A DNA stretch of 64,000 bases from Thermoproteota archaeon (GTDB lineage: Archaea; Korarchaeota; JAOZGF01; JAOZFZ01), in NCBI GenBank assembly GCA_027492035.1, contig JAOZFT010000020.1, positions 32,001-96,000 on the forward strand, written 5' to 3'. Of this stretch, positions 17,102 to 32,417 are shown piece after piece (within the stretch, counting starts at the first letter, position 1; every line of letters starts with the position of its first letter). A program made the translations under genes and the position numbers. Below the pieces are notes generated by a model. The model searched no databases. It was not told where the DNA came from and saw only the letters and a program-made list of their open reading frames with translations.

Positions 17102-17464
17102 ATGCCTAAGGTTCCGTCCTTTATTTTAAAGAAGTTATATGTAAAAAACTCTCTTAAGAACTTGGAGGATGGCTTCCAATTTGAAATAAAAAACGTTTTA
17201 GCGGATGCTACAATAAACGCACCTATCGAATTAACTGTAGACAATAAACCTGTGGAAAAGGAGAAAGTGACTTTAGTTATAGGGGGTAAGGAAATACCTT
17301 CTGGACAGGTTTCTTCCTCTAGTCCTTTAAAGTTCCCTGTTCAAACTTTAGTGCAAGTAAAAATCGAGGATAAACCTCTAAGTTCAGGAAAACATAAAAT
17401 TGAAATAAAGACGAATTCTCAAGAGTACGGGGAAATTTCTTTCTCGGTAAAGGGAGAAATCTAA
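17102..17464 (+). CDS. Hypothetical beta-rich protein
   Basis: 120 aa, strong SD GGAGGTG. The VPSFILKKLYVKNSLKN..GFQFEIKN start looks like a conserved archaeal domain of unknown function. Confidence 0.75.
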   Translation: MPKVPSFILKKLYVKNSLKNLEDGFQFEIKNVLADATINAPIELTVDNKPVEKEKVTLVIGGKEIPSGQVSSSSPLKFPVQTLVQVKIEDKPLSSGKHKIEIKTNSQEYGEISFSVKGEI

Positions 17465-17575
17465 AGTTTAACTTTAGCAAAATCTCCCTCTTTTTTTTCA
17501 ATTGCACTCTCTAAAACTGTTAAACCATTAAAAGTTGAATTTTTCCAGAAAAGTACTTGAATAATTTAAGGTGTT

Positions 17576-21165: not shown

Positions 21166-24078
21166 TTACTCAAGGTAAAGAGCAGGTTTTCCAGGCAGGG
21201 CTCTGCTGCTTTTTTTTGCAGGGTCATAAATTGGTTGTTCAGCTTTCTGGATATTAAGCCTTAGATTAGTTTGTTTTTCAATGTAGCTCTTTGTTTCTTT
21301 CAAGGTTTTGACTTCTTTTTCTTGTGTAGATAGCCAAATCCACTGCCCAGTTTTTGCTATTGTTTGAATTATTTTCACAACTTCTTTTCCATGCTTTTTT
21401 ATTTCTTCCTTCTTCATAAGTTCCTTAGTTAAGGTTTTGGGGTCAAGTTTCCTGGTTTCCATATAGATCTTCTTTATTTCATTCATTAACTTAAACTTCC
21501 AAGACTCTGCCACGTAGACATAAACATTGTTTGGTTTCTTCCCTAGAAGCTTGCTTATGGCATTGATGTCATCAATTAAGCTGTCAACGAACCCCATAGA
21601 CTCTTCCACTTCTTCATTAATGAATTCTTTTTTTGCCTCAGGCCAAGAGGAAACTGAAACAAGTTCTTTATGTCCAAGTTTCTCCCAAATTTCTTCAGCC
21701 ATGTGTGGAGCAAATGGAGCCAAAAGTTTAGCCCAAACATTTAGTACATTCCACATTACGGGATTGGTTGCTTCTTCGTTTTTCCTTTCCGAAACAGCTG
21801 CAAGGTATTTAGAGACTTCAAGGTCGAAAAGGTAAAAAACGTGATGAAGAGCTTCTCTCACTCTACACTCTTCCAAAGCTTTTGTTGACGCTTCTATATG
21901 TTTTTGAACCCTTGAAAGCAACCATTTGTCCCACATGGCTAAGTTACTAGGTATTTCTTTATTTTTAACCTTTGAAAACTTCTTTGTTAATTCATAAATT
22001 TTTTTAAGTCTTGAAATAGTTGATTTAGCTACTGTTTCGCTGAAGTCAGCGTCTGATAAGAGTTCAGCTGAACCTAGGATTGATAATCTTAAAGTATCTG
22101 CACCATAAGTTTTAATTGCTTCCTTTATCGGGATTATGTTGCCTAAAGTTTTGCTCATTTTCTTCCCGTTCATAGTAACTGAACCATTAACCACTATTTG
22201 TTTAGGCCAGTGTTCCCGTTTGAAAATTGCTAAATGGTTGAAAATGAAAAATGTTAAATGGTTCCAGATGAGATCTCTTCCGCTATTTCTTGAATCTAAA
22301 GGGTACCAGTACTCGAATTCTTTCCTCATTCCAGAAAGAATCTCTTGTGGAATCCCTGTTTCTTCAGAAATCTTTTCAGGGTTACCTTTTCCAAGGAAAA
22401 CATAATCAAATACTTTGTTATTGAAGAGTTTCCCTTCCAGCTTGAACTTGTTTATGTATTTAGCTATAGTGTAATAAGCCATGTAAATTGTTGAATCGCT
22501 TAAACTTTCAATTATCCAATCTGGATCCCAGGGGAAACGTGTACCTAAACCGCTCCTTCTTGCGCAAGCTCTTTCCTTAAGCCAATCAACGCAATCATAG
22601 AATTCACGCTTCACTTCATTAGGGATAATTCTCAATTCACCTAAGTAATCCTTTACCATTTTTTTCCATTCAAGGTTTCCGTAATCTATAAACCATTGAT
22701 CCTCCACCACTTTTACAATTACTTCTGTTCCGCATCTACAGTAAACAGGTGCATTCGTCAATTCATAAAACTTTATAGCTTCTTTCTTTTTTTCAAGATC
22801 TTCTTTAATTTTCTCCTTTGCTTCTTGAACCTTTAACCCTGCGTATTTACCGGTGTTGCTTTTCATCACTCCAGCATGGAATTCTTTACTGTAAATTAAT
22901 TTAGTGGCTTCCTCCAGTTTAGGGTCGCCTTGATCCTTTATTTTAAATTTTTCAACTGCATCACGGGCTGGAAACTCAGAAAATCCTTCAATTTTAATCA
23001 GTGAGATAGGTTTTATGGCTTGCACTTCATCCATGTTCAAGTTAAACTTTTTCATTTCCTTTATTTTTTTCTTTAAATCTTCCAAGGCTACGTAGTCGTA
23101 AGGGGCATGGCCGGGTACAGACATAACTAATCCTGAGCCGTAGTTGGGATCAACAAACGAAGCTGGCAAAACTAAAACTTTATCTCTAGTTAAGGGGTTA
23201 ATAACTTTCTTTCCTACAAGTTCATTGCCTTGAACATCAGAAATCGGTTTTACTTGGTGAGTTTGAGACTTAAGCTTTAAAACAGCCCTTTCAGAAGTTA
23301 TCCACTTTTCACCGTCAACTTCAACTAGTTTATAAGTAACTTCTGGATTAACCCAAATGTTAGTGACTCCTAAAGTTGTTTCAGGCCGGTAAGTAACCAC
23401 TGGAATGAAAACATTCTCGTTTTCAATTTTAAATTTTATAAGTGTGGTTTCCTCTATTTCAGGCTCCACATCCCCTATTGTGTCGTGCTGCCCCACAGCG
23501 TTTAAGCAAGAGGGACACCACCCTACAGGGTGCTTTCCTTTAACAATGTATCCTTTCTCTTTCAACTTATGAAATTGCCAAGTAATGAATTTACTGTAGA
23601 CGGAATCGATTGTTGTGAACTCCCTTCTCCAATCAATGGAGAAACCCATTAGTTTCATTCCTTCCTTTATTTCGTCCCTGAAATAATTTGCCACGTTCAA
23701 TGGTTCAGTGAAAGTTTTTATTTTGTCCTCAGGCACATGGTAAAGTTCACGGAAAGTCTTTATCAGTTCTTTATCCCCTTTCCTTACTCTTTTAGCCATT
23801 GCTAAAACAGGGGTTCCTGTAAAATGGAAAGCCATAGGCAGCAAAACATTAAACCCTTCCATTCTCTTAAATCTGGCATATACGTCCGTTAAAGAATAAG
23901 TTCTGCCATGTCCTATATGTTGAGGGCTGTTAGGGTAAGGATAAGCTACAGTGATGAAAAACTTAGGTTTATTTGACACCGGGTCTGCCTCAAAAATTTT
24001 TTTCTCAACCCAAACCCTCTGCCACTTAGTTTCAATTTCCCTCATTAACTTAACAAAATCTTTACTCAAAAGGAACAC
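21166..24078 (-). CDS. leuS: Leucine--tRNA ligase (archaeal type)
   Basis: AYPYPNSPQHIGH, KMSKT, ESLSDSTIYMAYY. Confidence 0.97.
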   Translation of the reverse strand: MFLLSKDFVKLMREIETKWQRVWVEKKIFEADPVSNKPKFFITVAYPYPNSPQHIGHGRTYSLTDVYARFKRMEGFNVLLPMAFHFTGTPVLAMAKRVRKGDKELIKTFRELYHVPEDKIKTFTEPLNVANYFRDEIKEGMKLMGFSIDWRREFTTIDSVYSKFITWQFHKLKEKGYIVKGKHPVGWCPSCLNAVGQHDTIGDVEPEIEETTLIKFKIENENVFIPVVTYRPETTLGVTNIWVNPEVTYKLVEVDGEKWITSERAVLKLKSQTHQVKPISDVQGNELVGKKVINPLTRDKVLVLPASFVDPNYGSGLVMSVPGHAPYDYVALEDLKKKIKEMKKFNLNMDEVQAIKPISLIKIEGFSEFPARDAVEKFKIKDQGDPKLEEATKLIYSKEFHAGVMKSNTGKYAGLKVQEAKEKIKEDLEKKKEAIKFYELTNAPVYCRCGTEVIVKVVEDQWFIDYGNLEWKKMVKDYLGELRIIPNEVKREFYDCVDWLKERACARRSGLGTRFPWDPDWIIESLSDSTIYMAYYTIAKYINKFKLEGKLFNNKVFDYVFLGKGNPEKISEETGIPQEILSGMRKEFEYWYPLDSRNSGRDLIWNHLTFFIFNHLAIFKREHWPKQIVVNGSVTMNGKKMSKTLGNIIPIKEAIKTYGADTLRLSILGSAELLSDADFSETVAKSTISRLKKIYELTKKFSKVKNKEIPSNLAMWDKWLLSRVQKHIEASTKALEECRVREALHHVFYLFDLEVSKYLAAVSERKNEEATNPVMWNVLNVWAKLLAPFAPHMAEEIWEKLGHKELVSVSSWPEAKKEFINEEVEESMGFVDSLIDDINAISKLLGKKPNNVYVYVAESWKFKLMNEIKKIYMETRKLDPKTLTKELMKKEEIKKHGKEVVKIIQTIAKTGQWIWLSTQEKEVKTLKETKSYIEKQTNLRLNIQKAEQPIYDPAKKSSRALPGKPALYLE

Positions 24079-24348
24079 CTAAAAGAGAGGAATAGGGATG
24101 TATTTCATTAAAAACAGAAGGAGAATGTATAGTTTAAATATATGAAAGGGAAAATTAAAAGGTTCCTTGTTTAAAACAATTCCGGCAAGTCAAGCCCCTC
24201 CTTTAAAAAGTTAAGGAGGTAAGGTTCCCATCAATGCTTATTTAAATTTTTTGTTTCCTATACAGTTATTAATTAGGAAAAATTTCAGCAGAGGAGGACA
24301 GAGTAGCTAGGAGAGAAGGAAAATTGATGATTAAGGAAAAAGAGGAAC

Positions 24349-25149
24349 TTATTGCAGAGAAAAATGTTTTAATTTTTCGTTTAAGTAATCAACTAAACTG
24401 TTTGTTTTTTTCACTGCGTGAAAGTTCAAATCTAAACCTGTCACAGCTATCTTCCCCTCCCTTTTTATGACATATACATCTGTGCCAGGTTCACCTTCAT
24501 AGAAATCCATTCTCCAACTCTTTAGAGTGTAAATGTTCTCCCATGCCTCCCTAAAAATGTCTTTGTAAACAGTATCAGCTATTTCAGCAAATACGGCCTC
24601 TGCTTTCTTCAATTTTGAGGGTACATTGATAGAAATAATTTTAACCTTAGGAGGCATTCCATTCCTAAAGACATAATTAACGGTATGTTCCAAAACAAAG
24701 GATGCAGCTTTGAACGCAACTTTGCTCCTAACCTTTACGTCACAATACGAAACAGCTATTGAAGGTATTTCGTGAAGAGCAGCTTCCAAGGCAGCGCCTA
24801 TAGTGCCTGAATTCAAGTAGTCCTCCAATCCAAGATTAGGGCCCAAATTAATGCCTGAAACTACCAAGTCAGGCCTAAATTTAAGTAATTTATAAAGGGC
24901 AAGTAATACGCAGTCGGCAGGTGTTCCATCAACACAAAAACCGTCGTTTATTTTCACTACTTTAATTGGTTTTGTAAGGGTTAAGGCTTTACCCATTCCA
25001 CTTTTAGGGTTGAAAGGAGCAACCCAAGCAAGTTTAACTAATTTTTTAAGGGTTTCCTTAGCTAACTCTAAACCTACAGATCCTACACCGTCATCGTTAA
25101 CCAACAAAACCTTTCTCAAACTCATCAACTCTTCAACAGACAGAAACAA
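24349..25149 (-). CDS. surE: 5'/3'-nucleotidase SurE
   Basis: LVNDDG, GTPADC, SGINLGPN, SGTIGAA. Confidence 0.92.
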   Translation of the reverse strand: MFLSVEELMSLRKVLLVNDDGVGSVGLELAKETLKKLVKLAWVAPFNPKSGMGKALTLTKPIKVVKINDGFCVDGTPADCVLLALYKLLKFRPDLVVSGINLGPNLGLEDYLNSGTIGAALEAALHEIPSIAVSYCDVKVRSKVAFKAASFVLEHTVNYVFRNGMPPKVKIISINVPSKLKKAEAVFAEIADTVYKDIFREAWENIYTLKSWRMDFYEGEPGTDVYVIKREGKIAVTGLDLNFHAVKKTNSLVDYLNEKLKHFSLQ

Positions 25150-25337
25150 CGTGTCTTTTTACTTCAGCGTCTTCAAAAACCAGAAAAGCAACTCTCTTTT
25201 TCATGGAACCGGTTCTGTTAACTTATTGTTGGTGAAGTGAAAGAATAAAAAAATTATTGAATTTCTCCCCTACTTCATTGGAAATAAACTTTGATAAACT
25301 TAATTTGATAACACATTGGTTCTCTTATTAAATCCCT

Positions 25338-25523
25338 TTACCATTTTCCAATCTCAAATTGATTCCGCAAGCTTCGGCAGGTGTTTTTACAAGATTTCAG
25401 AAATCTCTTCGCAACAGAAATGTAAGCCTTAACCATTTGGTAGAAATACTTTCTCAGTTTAATTTCTTTGATGAACTTGCCTATTAACTCACAGCGTCCT
25501 TGCGGCGTAAGCTTCTTTAATAT
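25338..25523 (-). pseudogene. Truncated tyrosine-recombinase (integron-type integrase) N-terminal domain
   Basis: Manual translation ILKKLTPQGRCELIGKFIKEIKLRKYFYQMVKAYISVAKRFLKS... resembles the phage-integrase N-terminal SAM-like motif (E.I.LR.YS..T.K.Y...V..FL). No start codon, no catalytic domain; divergent from the cassette array. Confidence 0.55.
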
Positions 25524-25530
25524 TCAGGCC

Positions 25531-25646
25531 AATAACTGATTATGTGAGTATTAAAAAATTTTATAAGAAGAACTTTATAAAAGTTCGTTTTAACCTCTAA
25601 ATTTAGAAGATTATGTGAATAAAGGTTTGTGAAATAATTGTTGTCC
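25531..25646 (+). other. attI-like recombination site
   Basis: Direct repeat GATTATGTGA (25538, 25609) and palindrome GAACTTT-ATA-AAAGTTC (25570-25586). Ends in GTTGTCC (25640-25646), whose complement GGACAA[C/T] opens attC1. Confidence 0.5.
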
Positions 25647-25710
25647 GAAATTGCGGCGACGGGAGAAAAAATTAAAAATAGATTACATACATTAAGTGAG
25701 GTGATCAGGG

Positions 25711-25941
25711 ATGGTCATATTAACGGCGATAATTCACAAAGAAGAAGATATGTATGTTGCTGAGTGCCCAGAAGTTGGAACTGTAAGTCAGGGTAAAACT
25801 ATAGAAGAGGCAATTTACAACCTGAAAGAAGCAACAGAATTGTATCTTGAAGAATTCCCCCTGGAAGAGAAAGAACATCCGATTCTTACGACTTTTGAGG
25901 TATCTAAAGTTATGGGAGCAGAGAAAATTGCCAAAGCTTAG
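25711..25941 (+). CDS. hicB: HicB family antitoxin
   Basis: YVAECPEVGTVSQGKTIEEAIYNLKEATELYLE; SD GAGGTGA. Confidence 0.9.
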   Translation: MVILTAIIHKEEDMYVAECPEVGTVSQGKTIEEAIYNLKEATELYLEEFPLEEKEHPILTTFEVSKVMGAEKIAKA

Positions 25942-26158
25942 AAAGATTTCTGGGGAAGACGTAGTTAAGATATTACATAACAAATTTGGCTTTCAAATAA
26001 CAGGGAGAAAAGGTAGTCATGTTAGATTATCCAAAATGACGCCTAGTGGAAAAGTTGGGACTGTGGTTCCAATGCATAAAGAACTAAAGATAGGAACCCT
26101 CAGGGGTATCTTGAAGCTTGCAAAGGTAGATATTGATGAATTCTCTAAGTATCTATAA
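25928..26158 (+). CDS. hicA: HicA family mRNase toxin (TTG start, overlapping hicB)
   Basis: LPKLRKISGEDVVKIL..FGF....KGSHVRL...VVPMHKELKIGTLRGIL. Confidence 0.9.
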   Translation: MPKLRKISGEDVVKILHNKFGFQITGRKGSHVRLSKMTPSGKVGTVVPMHKELKIGTLRGILKLAKVDIDEFSKYL

Positions 26159-26209
26159 GATTATGTCGTCACCCGCAAATTTCAGCTCCGCTCCGGTGCT
26201 AGCGCACTA

Positions 26210-26303
26210 GGACAATAGGGAGATATGTGGCTTCGCCTTCGACTATGCCCCAATCTGCTCCATTACTGTCCCGCAAACTTCACATATCCTCAAAACGTTA
26301 GGC
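26210..26303 (+). repeat. attC-like site 1
   Basis: Inverse core GGACAAT, inner inverted repeat GATATGTG/CACATATC, core GTTAGGC (26297-26303). Confidence 0.7.
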
Positions 26304-26365
26304 GTAATTCCTGCGCGCCTCAAAGATCGAAAGCTTTATAAATATTTTTTAGATTGGCAAATATT

Positions 26366-26590
26366 ATGATAGTAGAAATTGTATTAAAAAACGAACCAAG
26401 TTTGGAACTTGAAGGCTATGAAAAAATAGAGCTTCCGAACGGAGCAATTTTTGCAAACCCAGTAGAAAAGAGGGTAGAGATAGTTGTGAAGAAACATCCA
26501 GATGGTAGAGTTAGTATATTTACAGACAAATCAGAAGTGATAAAATCAGTAGTGCAACTTGGAGAAGTTGTTGATATTCACGCAAAATAG
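26366..26590 (+). CDS. Orphan cassette protein (about 74 aa)
   Basis: Intact ORF between attC1 and attC2. BRE/TATA GAAAGCTTTATAAATA at 26329-26344 favours ATG 26366 over the track start at 26354. Confidence 0.7.
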   Translation: MIVEIVLKNEPSLELEGYEKIELPNGAIFANPVEKRVEIVVKKHPDGRVSIFTDKSEVIKSVVQLGEVVDIHAK

Positions 26591-26644
26591 GTCGGCGCGC
26601 TCGGAACTTCTCCGTTCGCTTTGCTCACTCCAATTCTTTGGGAT

Positions 26645-26739
26645 GCCTAACAGCGGTTACGAGGAAAATCTGTACTTCGTTTGATTTTTTCCCAAATCGC
26701 TCTTACGAGCAACTTCTCGTAACCACAATAATGTTCAGC
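26645..26739 (+). repeat. attC-like site 2
   Basis: Inverse core GCCTAAC (exact complement of GTTAGGC opening this cassette), inverted repeat GGTTACGAG/CTCGTAACC, core GTTCAGC (26733-26739). Confidence 0.75.
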
Positions 26740-26859
26740 GGCAAGAATACCCAAATTTCGCCTTGCAGAATATAAAACTCCAAAATAATAACAACCCTCT
26801 AGAGCCCACGACACCCTTAAAATTTGTGCTTGGCGAAACTTCGCGCAACAGGAAATTAA

Positions 26860-27332
26860 GCGGTTTAACTTTGCTTCCAATTGTTGTTGGAATTTTGACA
26901 TTTGGAATAAAGCTTATTAGTAGTTCTAATTCAGAAATCTCAAGAGCGGGCTTCTGGTTGTTGCGATTTATAGTTGGTGGTATCTCATTTGCGGTTGCTA
27001 TGTAACTTTTCGAATTGACTGTGTTATACGCGACGATTTGCTATCTTAAATACTTTAGAACGAGAGATGGGGATGTTGAATGACGTATCACCGAAAAATC
27101 GCGTCAATTTACCTTTCTGAGGGGTTATCTTAGATTTAATTGGACATTAATAAAAAGCATTAGATTTCCGCCCGCTATCTTCTATTCTATCCTTGGAGGA
27201 TGTAGCATTATCCTGTTTACAGGAAATATTGCCTTTAAATCAATCATAATTGGCTTGTTGCTGGCATTATTTATTTTGCCTATTGTAATGCTGTTACCTA
27301 TCTCCCTTACAAAAGGGGTTTGGTTCAAATGA
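26860..27332 (+). pseudogene. Degraded multi-pass membrane protein cassette gene
   Basis: One reading frame with hydrophobic segments, interrupted by TAA (27003) and TGA (27081), ending ...LPISLTKGVWFK* 18 nt before attC3. 5' end lost; start approximate. Confidence 0.5.
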
Positions 27333-27350
27333 ACACGAATAACAAACGGC

Positions 27351-27438
27351 GTATAACAGAGTGTATCTGGCTCCATGCTTTAGAAACTTCGCCCAAACCC
27401 TGCTTCGCAGGACTTCAGATATGCTTGAAACATTAAGT
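27351..27438 (+). repeat. attC-like site 3 (core mutated)
   Basis: Inverse core GTATAAC, inverted repeat GTATCTG/CAGATAT, internal hairpin CCTGC-TTC-GCAGG, core ATTAAGT (G to A). Confidence 0.6.
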
Positions 27439-27503
27439 GAGATGCCCTTCGTCTTTGAAAAGATTTAAAACTTAGAGTAGAATAGAACAATAAGTGCAAA
27501 AAA

Positions 27504-27822
27504 ATGAAAAAAATCACTGGGTGAGATAAGAACAATTATCAAAAACATAAAAAAGAACTTAAAGGAAAGCATGGAGTTAAAGAAATAGGAATCTTTTTTG
27601 GGGTGAGGGGAGAAGCAAAGAAAAATAGCGATATTGACATACTGGTTGAATTCGAAAAGTCTACGGGATTCTTTAAATTTCTCAAACTGAAGAGATATCT
27701 GGGTAATTTAATAGGTGGAAAAGTGGATCTTGTACCTAAAAAAGGCGCTTAAACCACATATTGGAAAAATATATTCTTGAGGAAGTTGTAACAGTGTGGA
27801 GAAAATATACAGGGATTACATA
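27504..27822 (+). pseudogene. Frameshifted MNT minimal nucleotidyltransferase plus first codons of a HEPN partner
   Basis: Fragments HKKELKGKHGVKEIGIF / VRGEAKKNSDIDILVEFEKSTGFFKFLKLKRYLGNLIGGKVDLV / ALKPHIG / ILEEVV in shifting frames, then YRDYI. Confidence 0.8.
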
Positions 27823-27856
27823 CTGTTTTAGATCATCCTGTTCTGTAAAAAAGTTC

Positions 27857-28387
27857 TTAACCCTTTTTAACTTTCCACTTTCTAATTAATTTATTAGCTA
27901 AGAAAGAAATTATTAACATCACAACTAAAGAAAGGACCACTACAAAGTAAAGGTTTGAAGTGAAACGAAGGAAACCTAAAATAGAACTTGCTATTATGAA
28001 ATAGAAAAGACAATTCCCAACAACACCTGCAGCGTACACTTTCCGTCTTTTAACCCCCATCAAGGCCATTAAAGGAACTGATAAATAAACCCAAAGTGTG
28101 AAGCAAAGTAAGACTAAGCCTGTAAAAGACGCAGCTGAACCGTACTTCTCCTCAAAATCAATTCTCTTCCTTTTAAAATATTCACTAAACCTCATGCTTA
28201 CCTTACTAATTTCTAAACCAGCGAAGTAAGCAATAGTGATCGCTAAAATGAGGGATATAAACCAAAGGATTGTTCCCCCTGCTAAACCAATTTCTGAACT
28301 ATAAAGCACAGTTAATGCCGGAATAATGACAGCCGAAAACTGCACAAGAAGTAAAAGAAATAACAGAAATAAAGTAAGTAATTCCAT
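27857..28387 (-). CDS. Hypothetical membrane protein (possibly DedA/VTT-like)
   Basis: 176 aa, about 5 TM, EKYG motif. Confidence 0.65.
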   Translation of the reverse strand: MELLTLFLLFLLLLVQFSAVIIPALTVLYSSEIGLAGGTILWFISLILAITIAYFAGLEISKVSMRFSEYFKRKRIDFEEKYGSAASFTGLVLLCFTLWVYLSVPLMALMGVKRRKVYAAGVVGNCLFYFIIASSILGFLRFTSNLYFVVVLSLVVMLIISFLANKLIRKWKVKKG

Positions 28388-28496
28388 TCTTCACCAACTC
28401 CCGTAAGAAGGTAAAAGGAGTCAAATTTTAAATTTAAATCTTCTCTTTTAATTTTTTTAAACCAAGTGAAGGAAAGGGTGAGAAAGGTAAGGGTAA

Positions 28497-29798
28497 ATGG
28501 GTGAAAAGGAAGTTTCTGAAATAGTTGATGAAGCAAAGGGGGAAATAATCTCTTTCTGCCGAGAATTAATTAAAACTGAGAGCTATAACCCTCCAGGTGG
28601 GGAAGAAAAGGTGGTGCAGGTAATAGCAAAGAAACTTGAGGAGGAAGAAGTACGGTATGAAATAATAAGTTCAGGAAATAAGAGAACCAATATATTAGCG
28701 GGGATAAAGAAAGGGAATGGGAGGAAACTTCTTTTCTGTGGACACATGGACACGGTTCCGCCAGGGGAGCTAGAAACTTGGAAGTTCCATCCCTTAAGTG
28801 CAGCGGTTGAGGATGGCAAAATCTACGGTAGAGGAGCATGTGATATGAAAAGTGGCTTAGCTTCGATGGTAATGGCTGCCATCCTATGTAAAAGACATGA
28901 GGAATGCATGAACAAAATCAATGGGGAAGTAATCTTGGCTATAGTTGCTGACGAAGAAATGGGAAGCGACTACGGCATGAAATTTTTAGTGAATAATTAT
29001 AGAGAAAAGTTAGGGGCTGATTACGCAGTTGTCTGTGAACCTTCAGGTTCGTCAACAACCGGGAAAGCTATTGTGATCGGTGAGAAAGGGGATTATGAAT
29101 TAAAGGTTACCTTCTTTGGAAAGAAAGGGCATTCAAGTGTCCCTTATCTAGCTGATAACGCGGTTGAAAAAGCCTGTAGATTCATTGCAAACCTTAACAA
29201 AATGAAAATTAGGAGAGTGAAACCTCCAATAACAAAGCTTCAATACCTTAAAATGTTTGTTGAAAAATATGGATGGGGAGAAATATTAAAGGGTTTGTTT
29301 TCAAAGCAGAAAAGTGCAGGAACAGCTGTGTTGAAGGCTTTAGTGAGCTGTGTATATTCTACAACAATTATAAATGGTGGATTCAAGTCCAACGTAATCC
29401 CTGACAAATGTGAAGCTACAATTGATTTCAGGGTGTTGCCTGGACAAACAGTTCAGGATGTGGAAGAAGCTGTTGAAAACTTAGCTGCAAAACTAGGGAT
29501 AAAGGTTTCAGTGGAAGTGCCTTTAGTAATTGAACCCTCGGTTCTCACTGATGGAGAAGAGTTGACAGGGACATTGGAGAAACTTGTGAATAAATTTTAT
29601 GGTGAAAAACCCTTAAAGATAATGATGCCAGGAGCTTCAGATGCTAGGTTCCTCAGAAACATATTAAAAATACCTACTGTTCAATTTGGTCCTGGAGAGG
29701 GAGAAACAGCTCATGCCAGTAACGAATACGTGGAAATAAATGATTTAATAAAGGCAACAAAAGTTTACATGTCTTTAATCGAGGAAATCTTCAAATAA
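28497..29798 (+). CDS. M20 metallopeptidase/deacylase (ArgE/DapE family)
   Basis: GHMDTV, GRGACDMK, DEE, CEP, GHSS, AHASNE. Confidence 0.9.
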   Translation: MGEKEVSEIVDEAKGEIISFCRELIKTESYNPPGGEEKVVQVIAKKLEEEEVRYEIISSGNKRTNILAGIKKGNGRKLLFCGHMDTVPPGELETWKFHPLSAAVEDGKIYGRGACDMKSGLASMVMAAILCKRHEECMNKINGEVILAIVADEEMGSDYGMKFLVNNYREKLGADYAVVCEPSGSSTTGKAIVIGEKGDYELKVTFFGKKGHSSVPYLADNAVEKACRFIANLNKMKIRRVKPPITKLQYLKMFVEKYGWGEILKGLFSKQKSAGTAVLKALVSCVYSTTIINGGFKSNVIPDKCEATIDFRVLPGQTVQDVEEAVENLAAKLGIKVSVEVPLVIEPSVLTDGEELTGTLEKLVNKFYGEKPLKIMMPGASDARFLRNILKIPTVQFGPGEGETAHASNEYVEINDLIKATKVYMSLIEEIFK

Positions 29799-31400: not shown

Positions 31401-32417
31401 ATGGAGAAGGGTACAGTTTTCCTAATAGTCTTGATTTGTGTTGGTACAATGGCAGGGTTTGCTGTTTGGGAAGTAATGATTCCTTCTAAACAGGTTTTAA
31501 CTGTTTACCATGCAGGAAGTCTTTCAATCCCCTTTGAAGAAGTCAGGGTAGAGTTTGAAAAACAACACCCTACTGTGGATATCCAGTTATTTTCTATGGG
31601 TAGTGTTAAATTGGTTAGGCAAATAACTGATCTGGGAAAGAGCGTGGATGTGGCTGCAGTGGCGGATTACCGTCTAATCCCGGAAATGATGTATCCAAAA
31701 TTTGCAGATTGGGTTGTTAGGTTTGCAAGGAACGAAATGGTTCTGGTTTACACAAACAAAAGTAAATATTCCAAAGAGATCAACCCTGAAAATTGGTACA
31801 ACGTATTAAAGAGGAAAAGTGTAACTTTTGGTTTCGCAAACCCAAACATGGACCCCTGTGGTTACAGAGCGGTTATGGTGGTTCAGTTAGCTGAACTTTA
31901 CTACAACGACCCTGAAATATTTGATAACTTAATCTTAAACAACACGAACATTAGAGTAAGTGAGGAAGGAGGGACATATCTAATTACCGTGCCTGAAAAC
32001 TTGGAACCAGTCACTGGAAAGGTTGTAATTAGACCGAAATCTGTTGAACTTGTGGCTTTAATTGAGGAAGGTGGCCTTGATTATGCTTTTGAGTACAGAA
32101 GCGTAGCCATTCAACACAAGTTAATGTTTGTGGATTTACCTGATAAAATAGACTTAAGTCAACCAAGCTACACGAATTTTTACGGGAAGGTTAGCCTTAT
32201 AAGAGCTGACGGAAAAAAATGTACAGGAAAACCTGTTGTGTATGGGTTAACTGTTCCAAAAAATTCTTTAAGGCCTAGTCTTGGGTTAAAACTTGTAAAA
32301 TTTATTTTAAGTAATAAAGGAAGGAAGATACTTGATGACTGCGGCCAACCACCTATTGTTCCTCCAGTTGGGACTGGAAACATACCTGAAGAGTTAAAAC
32401 CCTCCTTACAGAAATAA
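31401..32417 (+). CDS. wtpA: Tungstate ABC transporter substrate-binding protein
   Basis: HAGSL, GSV, ADY, NPNMDPCGYR, RPKSVEL, YAFEYRSVA. Confidence 0.92.
   Translation: MEKGTVFLIVLICVGTMAGFAVWEVMIPSKQVLTVYHAGSLSIPFEEVRVEFEKQHPTVDIQLFSMGSVKLVRQITDLGKSVDVAAVADYRLIPEMMYPKFADWVVRFARNEMVLVYTNKSKYSKEINPENWYNVLKRKSVTFGFANPNMDPCGYRAVMVVQLAELYYNDPEIFDNLILNNTNIRVSEEGGTYLITVPENLEPVTGKVVIRPKSVELVALIEEGGLDYAFEYRSVAIQHKLMFVDLPDKIDLSQPSYTNFYGKVSLIRADGKKCTGKPVVYGLTVPKNSLRPSLGLKLVKFILSNKGRKILDDCGQPPIVPPVGTGNIPEELKPSLQK

Follow-up and report, generated by a model that had tools for sequence, protein, structure and literature searches.

The locus described here raises the question of whether an archaeal genome harbors the remains of an integron-like system and, if so, which kind of site and which kind of recombinase that system would have used. 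The locus corresponds to 25.2-27.85 kb of a 64,000-nucleotide stretch of DNA (hereafter the window, to which all coordinates refer) from a Thermoproteota archaeon of hot-vent origin, whose assembly is 93% complete. An earlier interpretation made from the letters alone, referred to here as the sequence-only reading, had described this region as a decayed integron-like cassette platform in an archaeon. Our analysis confirmed this observation overall, as it is supported by a conserved site family, a rule governing cassette boundaries, and a recombinase stub, and we consider it probable that the region preserves, in frozen form, what is left of an integron-like gene-capture platform.

The interpretation begins with three attC-like imperfect palindromes of 88-95 bp, each reported to lie behind a gene. 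All three were recovered by a site model (R3) with a training set of 80 sites taken from other genomes only; when run on the 64-kb window, this model returned exactly these three sites, the next match having an E-value of 0.39. Site 1 (GGACAAT ... GTTAGGC; 26210..26303, plus strand) was detected with E = 1.1e-15 and scored 84.2 bits with a further model (R2), site 2 (GCCTAAC ... GTTCAGC; 26645..26739, plus strand) was detected with E = 3.1e-7 and has a bottom-strand fold with z = -2.84, and site 3 (GTATAAC ... ATTAAGT; 27351..27438, plus strand) was detected with E = 1e-8 and has relatives on contigs C9 and C37. The sites measure 94, 95, and 88 nt, start 52, 55, and 18 nt behind a stop codon, respectively, and are spaced by 342 and 612 nt. 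Across the whole host genome R3 identified 10 sites at E <= 1, a count that may miss other site types, as both R2 and R3 trace back to sites initially recognized in this genome. Generic methods were less sensitive: sites 1 and 3 did not stand out from shuffled sequences in free-energy folding alone (z from -0.63 to +0.67), and a gapless inverted-repeat finder missed all three sites. Regarding other candidates, a model match in the window at 17417-17498 (E 0.02-1.4) was treated as noise, a candidate site on contig C19 (E 4.9) was dropped as it lies inside a coding region, and further decayed sites sought by eye at 26844-26930 and 27000-27029 were unsupported by any model.

These sites belong to a family with a common layout, namely 5'-nnnnAAC, a 3-nt spacer, a stem, a loop in which GCCCAAA is often present, the returning stem, a 5-nt spacer, and GTTnnnn-3'. 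An exact 23-position pattern retrieved 53 stretches from archaeal and bacterial genome records, mostly of hydrothermal sediments; the model matched in 48 of these stretches and gave 80 matches overall. The bacterial hosts are those named in the record titles of metagenome bins, for which mis-binning is possible. Site ends are nearly identical between archaeal and bacterial records of the same vent sediments, which suggests a cassette pool shared across both domains. Array loci are scattered and small, with six in the host genome, and 33 matches are strung along one complete genome.

The stem of this family co-varies. A set of 19 sites drawn from 8 genomes has 89.2% of its stem cells paired, versus 24-48% when the partner is slid, with double changes in 8 of the 13 stem pairs, and none of 500 shuffles reached the observed score; in a smaller set of 8 sites, 92.1% of cells pair, and across both sets compensatory changes affect 7-8 of the 13 pairs. 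The hairpin thus appears to be kept by structure and not by sequence, although the pairing of 89-92% was favored by alignments that follow the model structure (MAFFT aligned the 5' ends of the sites poorly, and a model-guided alignment was used in its place). The AAC/GTT pairs are preserved in 16-19 of the 19 sites. Stem sequences diverge even within one genome (ATATGTG, TTACGAG, ATAAAAG, and GTATCTG) while complementarity is kept, suggesting recognition of shape instead of a fixed arm sequence. This bears on the possibility that the elements are double-stranded sites of a Xer-type enzyme, as at dif or in plasmid dif modules, with the hairpin representing two inverted binding arms: such arms would not be expected to vary so widely within a genome, and those observed here lie 40-50 nt apart in sites that are direct and not alternating.

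The same family can be compared with canonical attC sites, which would be expected if the region were an ordinary integron remnant of the CALIN type, derived from canonical attC sites and a canonical IntI with its IntI-specific domain, as known for Archaea. A CALIN is defined as in Ghaly et al. (2022; PMC9668308), namely as at least two attC sites less than 4 kb apart with no IntI, and the window would qualify if its sites count as attC, as it has three sites within 4 kb and a recombinase fragment only. Site ends match the classical core consensus RYYYAAC ... GTTRRRY (starts GCCTAAC, GTATAAC, and GCTTAAC; ends GTTAGGC and GTTAAGT; for instance the pair GCCTAAC / GTTAGGC), with GGACAAT and GTTGTCC as deviants, and the site lengths fall inside the 57-141 bp range of attC (PMC5027507; PMC9668308). 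However, according to PMC5027507, canonical attC sites have extrahelical bases on the top-strand AAC arm and a central spacer of 5-6 nt per arm, whereas the asymmetry of the present hairpins runs the opposite way: in 89 of 99 sites the GTT side is 3-4 nt longer than the AAC side, which puts the unpaired bases of the gene-sense strand on its GTT arm, and the spacers measure 3 nt in 81 and 5 nt in 94 of the 99 sites.

The second line of evidence is the relation between neighboring sites. The heptamer GTTGTCC, which opens cassette 1 and closes the possible attI region, was confirmed at 25640..25646 (plus strand). As claimed in the sequence-only reading, it complements GGACAAT at 26210 in 6 of 7 bases, and GTTAGGC complements GCCTAAC in 7 of 7; we identified a third pair, GTTATAC (27023-27029) and GTATAAC (27351-27357), with complementarity in 7 of 7. 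When the four variable bases are considered, the junction at 25640 predicts the start of site 1, site 1 that of site 2, and GTTATAC that of site 3, each in 4/4 bases. The rule breaks between site 2 and site 3 (1/4), and is therefore obeyed at three of the four testable window junctions; the misfit can be attributed to decay between these two sites.

We examined this rule in 33 consecutive site pairs of other genomes (32 of them unique, as L049 and L100 represent a single locus). The four variable nucleotides matched the complement of the next site's start with a mean of 3.24 of 4, perfectly in 16 of the 33 pairs, compared with a same-site mean of 1.83 and a mean of 2.03 +/- 0.16 for permuted partners; the observed mean was reached in 0 of 20000 permutations. 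In intact platforms elsewhere, the attI-junction heptamer complements the start of the first site exactly in 5/5 cases. In addition, the 16-mer GTTGTCCGAAATTGCG of the 25640 junction recurs on contigs C9 and C15 behind attC-like sites. Two paralogous cassettes on these contigs, preceded by sites of two different subtypes, share a sequence with GTT as its exact start. Integration of circular cassettes at G/TT, as originally proposed, is consistent with these data in the window and in the 33 pairs alike, as is the classical-integron feature of a site end that belongs to the next cassette. A crossover at the left AAC would place a site core right behind attI, which is true of 0/5 platforms, and this alternative was rejected.

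The boundary rule also allows evaluation of the idea that the elements represent structured intergenic repeats that do not recombine (MITE-like repeats, terminators, or a family of small RNAs), with heptamer matches that would be a coincidence. Such repeats could account for elements right behind stop codons that contain a stem, and for a loop motif whose sequence is preserved as it would be in an RNA gene. They do not account for the complementarity of neighbors, the exact attI junctions, the dedicated recombinase adjoining the arrays (see below), or the C9/C15 cassettes that share sequence from GTT onward, and searching 24000-29000 against Rfam at E <= 10 yielded no match to the elements, only three chance matches to eukaryotic families. 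We regard this explanation as highly improbable. The related objection that similar hairpins elsewhere might not be tied to variable gene arrays is countered by the conservation of the site family and by the rule observed in 33 pairs.

The cargo had been interpreted as two toxin-antitoxin modules and an orphan gene in three cassettes. Cassette 1 carries a hicB-like antitoxin gene (25711..25941, plus strand; Pfam HicB_lk_antitox, 24.1 bits with E = 4.4e-5, short of the cut-off of 27) and a hicA toxin gene (25928..26158, plus strand; Pfam HicA_toxin, E = 2e-15, 57.1 bits, cut-off 27) with a putative TTG start at 25928, from which the two genes would overlap by 14 nt. Cassette 2 encodes an orphan protein of 74 aa (26366..26590, plus strand), predicted as an ORF, with no Pfam, NCBIfam, or PHROGs family. 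It is followed by a decayed zone (26740..27350, plus strand) with no R3 match at E < 0.39, which holds an ORF for an 80-aa two-helix protein (26763-27005), the orphan junction heptamer GTTATAC with no site ahead of it, and a membrane-protein frame that lacks a start codon and ends at 27333. Behind site 3, an MNT-type nucleotidyltransferase pseudogene (27505..27835, plus strand; Pfam NTP_transf_2, E = 3.6e-7, over the cut-off) shows at least three frameshifts in a three-frame reading, and the array is cut off there; about 11 codons behind it resemble what we take to be the start of a HEPN partner. Hence, HicA and the orphan gene stand as described, while HicB remains below its cut-off and the MNT module is frameshifted; likewise, the three sites stand and the count of three cassettes does not, as remnants of more than three are present. 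Two cassettes of the array are intact (the probable hicAB pair and the orphan gene), and at least two to three others have decayed. Homologues of the cargo occur in related arrays, with a HicB homologue between two sites in L090, a HicA homologue between two sites in L086, and MNT homologues within cassettes of L066 and L108. The cargo is typical of known integrons (PMC9668308), which agrees with a CALIN-type remnant.

Upstream of cassette 1, an AT-rich spacer (25524..25639, plus strand), comprising the 116 bases before GTTGTCC, may be an attI remnant, a function proposed from its sequence. It contains a 13-nt direct repeat, GATTATGTGA(G/A)TA, at 25538-25550 and 25609-25621, and a palindrome GAAC...GTTC at 25564-25592, identified through an inverted-repeat search. 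R3 found no match in 25524-25639, and the spacer has no detectable likeness to the attI of five related platforms, the adjoining stub being divergent. As this stub points away from the array, the attI label is tentative. On the far side of the stub lies a conserved 25-mer, ACCAACAATAAGTTAACAGAACCGG (25209..25233, minus strand), which elsewhere is located directly behind the last attC-like site. At up to 2 mismatches it occurs only in three array-linked loci of the genome and one unrelated place; it is also present in seven metagenome contigs, in one of which it again follows an attC-like site. It may correspond to an array terminus, a shared cassette start, or a secondary target.

The stub itself (25341..25523, minus strand) is an internal fragment of a tyrosine recombinase, covering part of the N-terminal SAM-like domain, in a 61-residue frame that lacks both a proper start codon and the catalytic domain. 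The match to Pfam PF13495 (Phage_int_SAM_4) is sub-threshold (E = 0.019, 15.8 bits, cut-off 27). With a profile of array-linked recombinases, built from 112 of 120 homologues among the matches listed (320-400 aa in length), the stub ranks first among all 34,932 ORFs in the six-frame translation of the genome (E = 0.0034), and it is again at the top with a 5-sequence recombinase profile (E = 0.024, same 34,932 ORFs); the match covers positions 73-112 of the 348 profile positions, with weak scores of 15-17.5 bits. The stub had no match in NCBIfam or PHROGs, and BLASTP against the XerA of the single same-family genome gave a spurious 8-residue match only. As the genome's best match to array-linked recombinases, it bears out the earlier description of a minus-strand stub resembling an integrase N-terminal domain, and the case in which it would have no tyrosine-recombinase match does not apply. 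The stub is thus a real, if weak, recombinase remnant.

It is oriented away from the cassettes, while integrase, attI, and cassettes are co-directional in 5/5 intact platforms, and a full-length gene placed in the register of the stub would run into both hicB and surE. Both features suggest that the stub may have been brought in by rearrangement and need not be the array's own integrase. The frozen array adjoins surE. In the only same-family genome the neighbors of surE differ and the gene order around it is not kept, so there is no empty site to compare; a look-up of public sequencing runs that contain the region listed none. In the host assembly (93% complete) we found no intact tyrosine recombinase, no match to PF00589, and no protein over the cut-off of TIGR02249 (integron integrase). 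With its recombinase reduced to a 61-residue fragment and no intact one found, the array can no longer rearrange by itself.

Related arrays elsewhere are linked to a recombinase. A phmmer search with one XerA query in 8-kb loci around the pattern matches detected no recombinase inside them, and the array-linked recombinases came to light only via whole-genome searches. Four of the five array-bearing genomes have a recombinase gene ahead of the array, 0.5-2.9 kb upstream of its first site and co-directional with it, and on one contig 14 sites follow such a gene. In 5/5 related platforms, attI is located directly after the recombinase stop codon and is co-directional with it, and these attI sites hold paired palindromes. 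Three of these proteins score 254.1, 239.2, and 242.1 bits with NF040815 (XerA, Archaea), over the cut-off of 220, which assigns them to the XerA class by sequence. With TIGR02249 the array-linked recombinases score 215-244 bits, under the cut-off of 265, which was reached in 0/41 relatives (host genome included) and 0/5 array-bearing genomes. Their homologues number at least 7,849 at E <= 1e-30.

The closest solved structure is that of Vibrio cholerae IntI4 (2A3V, E = 5.8e-52). Opposite IntI4 residues 182-238 (57 residues), where the IntI-specific domain near patch III of classical integrons would be expected, the array-linked recombinase has 15 residues; these enzymes also have an extra N-terminal domain of about 70 residues, with a helix-turn-helix in some members. 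Judged by sequence, the presumed cognate recombinase of the relatives is XerA-like and lacks the IntI-specific domain. Whether the enzyme was a true IntI, left open in the sequence-only reading, can thus be answered for the relatives. The lack of the 40-odd residue insertion in recombinases that head arrays, together with the TIGR02249 results and the inverted hairpin asymmetry, makes an ordinary CALIN quite unlikely. The IntI-specific domain is the part of IntI that contacts the extrahelical bases. Its absence, scores above the XerA cut-off, and attI palindromes that resemble Xer binding arms speak for double-stranded Xer recombination; given the divergent stems and the wide spacing and direct orientation of the sites, we consider this possibility unlikely.

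We therefore favor an integron-like platform in which each cassette unit would comprise one or more cargo genes and an imperfect hairpin site of 85-95 nt. In the intact system, a XerA-like tyrosine recombinase would be encoded upstream of the array; cassettes would leave as circles through recombination between two hairpin sites, and these circles would enter attI directly behind the recombinase's own gene, with a crossover at or beside the conserved GTT. A crossover at this position would imply that the last four bases of a site belong to the next cassette and complement the start of that cassette's own site. The sites presumably act as folded single strands, of which one strand would be cut, with the XerA-like enzyme as the likely catalyst. 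On a broader scale, the family may constitute a second integron branch across Archaea and Bacteria of hot sediments, with a XerA-like integrase carrying an N-terminal addition and no IntI domain, inverted site asymmetry, and many small loci; it would represent either a state ancestral to the origin of IntI from Xer or an independent invention of hairpin-site capture. We see the case for such a branch as evenly balanced.

Archaeal integrons have already been published, and the 539 sites of Ghaly et al. (2022; PMC9668308) may already include the present family; in the literature searched, we found no description of a non-IntI variant. Integrons are defined operationally via the IntI-specific domain and attC models trained on bacterial sites. 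The present family, a large one, follows the cassette rule although its arrays are headed by recombinases that lack this domain; if its apparent nature is confirmed, gene-capture systems are being under-counted in current surveys, notably in archaea and thermophiles. The family also offers a natural test case of how a Xer-type enzyme can recombine folded hairpins. For the host genome the consequence is modest, consisting of a dead array with a probable hicAB module retained beside surE.

Compared with sedentary chromosomal integrons and CALINs, including the archaeal ones of PMC9668308, the present arrays likewise consist of tandem, mostly co-directional short ORFs between imperfect hairpins with AAC/GTT cores. 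They are also similar in the apparent crossover at GTT with cassettes that begin with their own site's tail, in the greater likeness of sites within a genome, in a cargo rich in toxin-antitoxin pairs and unknowns, in the absence of the integrase from most instances, and in spanning both domains. They differ in an enzyme that scores as XerA and lacks the IntI-specific domain, in a conserved loop motif, and in their many small loci. Similarly, most of the N-terminal SAM-like domain and of the catalytic domain can be aligned with V. cholerae IntIA (IntI4; VCR sites; 2A3V), but the array-linked recombinase has 15 residues opposite residues 182-238 and carries its additional N-terminal domain. XerA acts at a single 28-bp site, at which it resolves chromosome dimers. 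The array-linked enzymes resemble archaeal XerA (4A8E, 5HXY; NF040815) in a similar catalytic-core length with no IntI insertion, yet unlike XerA they head cassette arrays, have their own attI, and carry an N-terminal extension. Finally, the dif modules of Acinetobacter plasmids are discrete gene modules bounded by Xer-type sites and shuffled between replicons with no integrase of their own. They use short double-stranded XerC/D sites that alternate in orientation, whereas the sites described here are hairpins of 85-95 nt in direct orientation, each with a cassette-specific end.

The array lies between surE (24349-25149, minus strand), its left neighbor, and an M20 peptidase gene (28497-29798, plus strand) in an assembly of 1.87 Mb and 42 contigs rated 93% complete. 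From left to right, this interval contains a short minus-strand frame of 61 residues (25341-25523; the stub), an AT-rich spacer reaching the first junction heptamer (25524-25639), hicB (25711-25941, plus strand) upstream of hicA (plus strand, ending at 26158; Pfam HicA, E = 2e-15), an orphan gene of 74 amino acids between sites 1 and 2 (26366-26590, plus strand) and, in its right part, a nucleotidyltransferase fragment (Pfam NTP_transf_2, E = 3.6e-7) whose reading needs at least three frame changes. The stretch between the orphan gene and this fragment holds no sound gene. Each intact cassette also carries an extra inverted repeat beyond the core heptamers, whose arms lie directly behind the opening heptamer and 26-40 nt ahead of the cassette's own site (25647-25662 with 26163-26180, and 26304-26320 with 26595-26610; for example, GAAATTGCGGCGACG / CGTCACCCGCAAATTTC); in a circular cassette, the hairpin would be extended by this outer stem.

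Free-energy folding gave values better than shuffled sequences for site 2 only (z = -2.84) and no better for sites 1 and 3, and a gapless repeat finder recovered none of the three window sites. Relatives of the 3' halves of the sites were found on contigs C9, C10, C15, and C37 of the same genome by short-word BLAST and nhmmer searches of intergenic pieces against the whole genome. Three successive site models with stem structure were then used: R1, from three well-aligned copies with a structure set by hand (an AAC/GTT pair plus a 10-bp stem with one bulge); R2, from eight copies in this genome after realignment with R1; and R3, based exclusively on 80 sites from other genomes. With filters off, R3 found in the window exactly the three imperfect palindromes that the sequence-only reading had proposed as attC-like, all on the plus strand: site 1 (26210-26303, E = 1.1e-15), site 2 (26645-26739, E = 3.1e-7), and site 3 (27351-27438, E = 1e-8), the next match having an E-value of only 0.39. 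Across the whole genome, R3 identified 10 sites at E ≤ 1, on C9, C10, C15, C21 (the contig of the window), and C37. The hairpin stem co-varies. In alignments that are biased towards pairing by having been fitted to the model, 92.1% of cells paired in the eight own sites (28-50% with the partner slid) and 89.2% in 19 sites from eight genomes (24-48% when slid), with double changes in 7 and 8 of 13 pairs, respectively; 0 of 500 shuffles reached the observed stem score for either set.

In an integron array, crossover takes place between the G and the TT of the right-hand core, so that the last bases of a site derive from the next cassette and complement the start of that cassette's own site. The pairs noticed from sequence alone, GTTGTCC (25640) with GGACAAT (26210) for cassette 1 and GTTAGGC (26297) with GCCTAAC (26645) for cassette 2, were both recovered, and a third, absent from that first list, joins GTTATAC (27023) to GTATAAC (27351). 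The end of site 2 (GTTCAGC) is a misfit to the start of site 3 (1/4); the 610 bases separating these sites are decayed, and GTTATAC stands alone there with no site preceding it. Elsewhere in the genome, GTTAAGT with GCTTAAC (C15) and GTTGTCC with GTACAAC (C9) agree at three of four variable bases. An independent set of sites from other genomes was reached through the exact pattern CTTCACATATCCNCNRAACNTTA, which occurs in 53 stretches of a species-representative genome collection (about 2 by chance, by our own estimate under uniform base composition). The site models matched in 48 of these stretches, giving 80 sites in total; the remaining five (with titles such as Paludibacter, Clostridium, and Lachnospiraceae) are probably chance occurrences. 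Among 33 same-strand pairs of consecutive sites within 4 kb of each other (32 unique places), complementarity between the four variable bases ending one site and the start of the next averaged 3.24 of 4 (16 perfect, 11 with three, four with two, and two with one), compared with 1.83 for the two ends of one site and 2.03 ± 0.16 for permuted partners, and the observed mean was reached in 0 of 20,000 permutations. Such neighbor complementarity marks cassette integration rather than a plain palindromic repeat.

Since the neighbor rule is symmetric, it is silent on which end of the site bears the crossover. The crossover is at the GTT, as seen from two sources: C9 and C15 carry two paralogous genes with common sequence from exactly GTTGTCCGAAATTGC onward, behind two different site subtypes; and in intact platforms a conserved GTT with a variable tail lies directly behind attI, the first site core following 0.5-2.9 kb beyond. 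The paralogues are small membrane-protein cassettes (C9:219400-219660 and C15:7250-7415), the C9 copy of which appears split into two frames, and the hicAB cassette of the window shares their GTTGTCCGAAATTGC start. A 25-mer with variable flanks on both sides, ACCAAYAATAAGTTAAYANAACCGG, was also observed in the window (25209-25233, minus strand, between the stub and surE), at C9:218044-218061 and C10:4467-4484, and in seven metagenome contigs (L120-L126). On C9, C10, and the metagenome contig L125 it begins directly after the first five bases of the right core of an attC-like site, and six other metagenome contigs have no such site near it. It may be the common start of several cassettes, a secondary target, or the terminus of an array.

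Profiles of the recombinases linked to arrays in other genomes were run against the genome's complete set of 34,932 six-frame ORFs (length ≥ 25 residues). The stub ranked first, with E = 0.024 against a five-sequence profile and E = 0.0034 (17.5 bits) against a profile of 112 of the 120 listed homologues, aligning to profile positions 73-112 (...RKY....KAYI....FLK...). Because of this rank, the stub, which had been read as resembling an integrase N-terminal domain, is very probably a true recombinase remnant. Rank 2 (E = 0.06) was a fragment on C9 matching the catalytic box. The cassettes are encoded on the other strand from the stub, whereas integrase, attI, and cassettes all run in one direction in five intact platforms, and an intact gene in the stub's register would extend into hicB at one end and into surE at the other. 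The flanking sequence has been replaced on both sides of the stub, which may lie outside its original place. The spacer (25524-25639) contains a 13-nt direct repeat and a GAAC...GTTC palindrome, with no detected likeness to the attI sites of relatives.

The assembly yielded no intact tyrosine recombinase, XerA included: no PF00589 match had E ≤ 0.01, and tblastn with a relative's XerA gave a sole match of 24 residues (C9:323112-323183). The surrounding locus (C9:323106-323201) is a decayed tyrosine-recombinase fragment with the catalytic box LKHSLATHLLE..., stops around it, and no attC-like site near. Among 41 genomes (40 relatives and this one), none passed the integron-integrase cut-off, and Xer-like genes were never on the same contig as a site.

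Recombinase genes were found in five array-bearing genomes reached through the pattern (G041-G045). In G043, the gene (C2:133302-134108, minus strand) is followed by 14 minus-strand sites from 131690 down to 92056; in G042, the gene (C9:28666-29394, plus strand) is followed by plus-strand sites at 32280, 33608, and 34788; G041 has two genes on C1, followed by a site at 0.5 kb in one case and at 1.5 kb in the other; and G044 has one on C10, with a site 2.2 kb downstream. Site maps revealed no recombinase-site linkage in G045. At 5/5 platforms, the heptamer behind attI exactly complements the start of the first site (GTTGTGC/GCACAAC, GTTATAC/GTATAAC, and three times GTTAGGC/GCCTAAC). In four loci (L112, L113, L115, and L130), the attI region, 100-190 nt after the recombinase stop codon, contains two copies of a 20-25 nt palindrome (e.g., GTATATACGCAATGC... 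and ...CATATCCGAACAGTTCGGATATG), then GAAYGA and the GTT junction; the palindrome pairs look like paired recombinase-binding sites.

These recombinases combine Phage_int_SAM_4 and Phage_integrase domains with an extra N-terminal part (a helix-turn-helix in one case). They score 239-254 bits against NF040815 (XerA of Archaea; cut-off 220) and 215-244 bits against the integron-integrase model TIGR02249 (cut-off 265). The sub-threshold TIGR02249 matches, present in all five genomes, span model positions 2-179 and 231-315, two segments separated by only 10-14 residues. Among solved structures, the V. cholerae integron integrase IntI4 (2A3V, E = 5.8e-52) is closest, with XerA (4A8E) just behind; the alignment skips IntI4 residues 182-238, where the query has 15 residues, and the IntI-defining domain is therefore absent from the array-linked recombinases. 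The sequence-only reading had considered a true IntI undecidable, the catalytic domain being deleted; this stands for the window's own copy, which is only a stub, but not for its intact array-linked relatives. In a word-limited search with 8,000 scored, homologues numbered at least 7,849 proteins at E ≤ 1e-30, some of which, in archaea and bacteria, carry the NCBI name 'site-specific tyrosine recombinase/integron integrase'.

Sites at E ≤ 0.1 occurred in 8 of the 41 genomes of the phylum sample, this one included. By record titles only, archaeal hosts of the pattern include Archaeoglobus, ANME-1 / Alkanophaga, a GoM-Arc1 genome, Syntrophoarchaeum, Aenigmatarchaeota, Iainarchaeum, Thermoplasmata, and Bathyarchaeota, and bacterial hosts include Thermotogaceae, Aquificaceae, Desulfofervidaceae, Thermodesulfobacterium, WOR-3, and Aminicenantes; many matches are in bins from hydrothermal sediment. 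Homologues of HicA, HicB, and the nucleotidyltransferase were found between sites in other genomes. The complete 1.92-Mb genome G041 (LR991653.1) has 33 attC-like matches at E ≤ 0.001, scattered between 88 kb and 1.85 Mb as numerous small clusters rather than one array, and its only XerA-like matches are the array-linked genes. On C37 of the window's own genome (4742-6066), a CPBP-family membrane protease-like gene lies between two attC-like sites facing each other, near a PIN-domain gene, a split Cas4-like frame, and a large CRISPR-associated-looking gene, all named from our reading of ORF translations rather than from family searches.

The window feature is genuine: a cassette array that belongs to an integron-like system, has decayed, and lacks an integrase; the R3 sites, the neighbor rule, and the rank of the stub bear out its initial description as a decaying platform of this kind in an archaeon. 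As an archaeal CALIN (at least two attC less than 4 kb apart, without IntI), it is of a kind already known: integrons have been described in 75 archaeal MAGs from nine phyla, mostly as CALINs, in a survey of 539 sites that reports attC identity across domains and states that six archaeal IntIs have the IntI-specific domain (Ghaly et al., 2022, PMC9668308, in the part available). A review of archaeal tyrosine recombinases mentions integrons in passing only, in its accessible portion (PMC8371274). Full-text searches on archaeal and integron-like cassette arrays gave no account of arrays led by a recombinase that lacks the IntI domain.

The sites themselves also differ from classical attC, in which the extrahelical bases are on the AAC arm of the top strand and the central spacer is usually 5-6 bases per arm (Nivina et al., 2016, PMC5027507). 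Among 99 aligned sites of the window's family, the spacer is 3 nt after AAC in 81 and 5 nt before GTT in 94, and the stem arm is 11 nt on the GTT side in 96 and 9-10 nt on the AAC side; the loop frequently carries GCCCAAA with conserved flanking bases, across genomes and domains. Because the GTT side is the longer by 3-4 nt in 89/99 sites, the asymmetry is inverted relative to classical attC as described in the available part of that source. The parent system is best described as an integron variant whose integrase is XerA-like, whose sites have the inverted asymmetry, and whose site family spans both domains in hot sediments.
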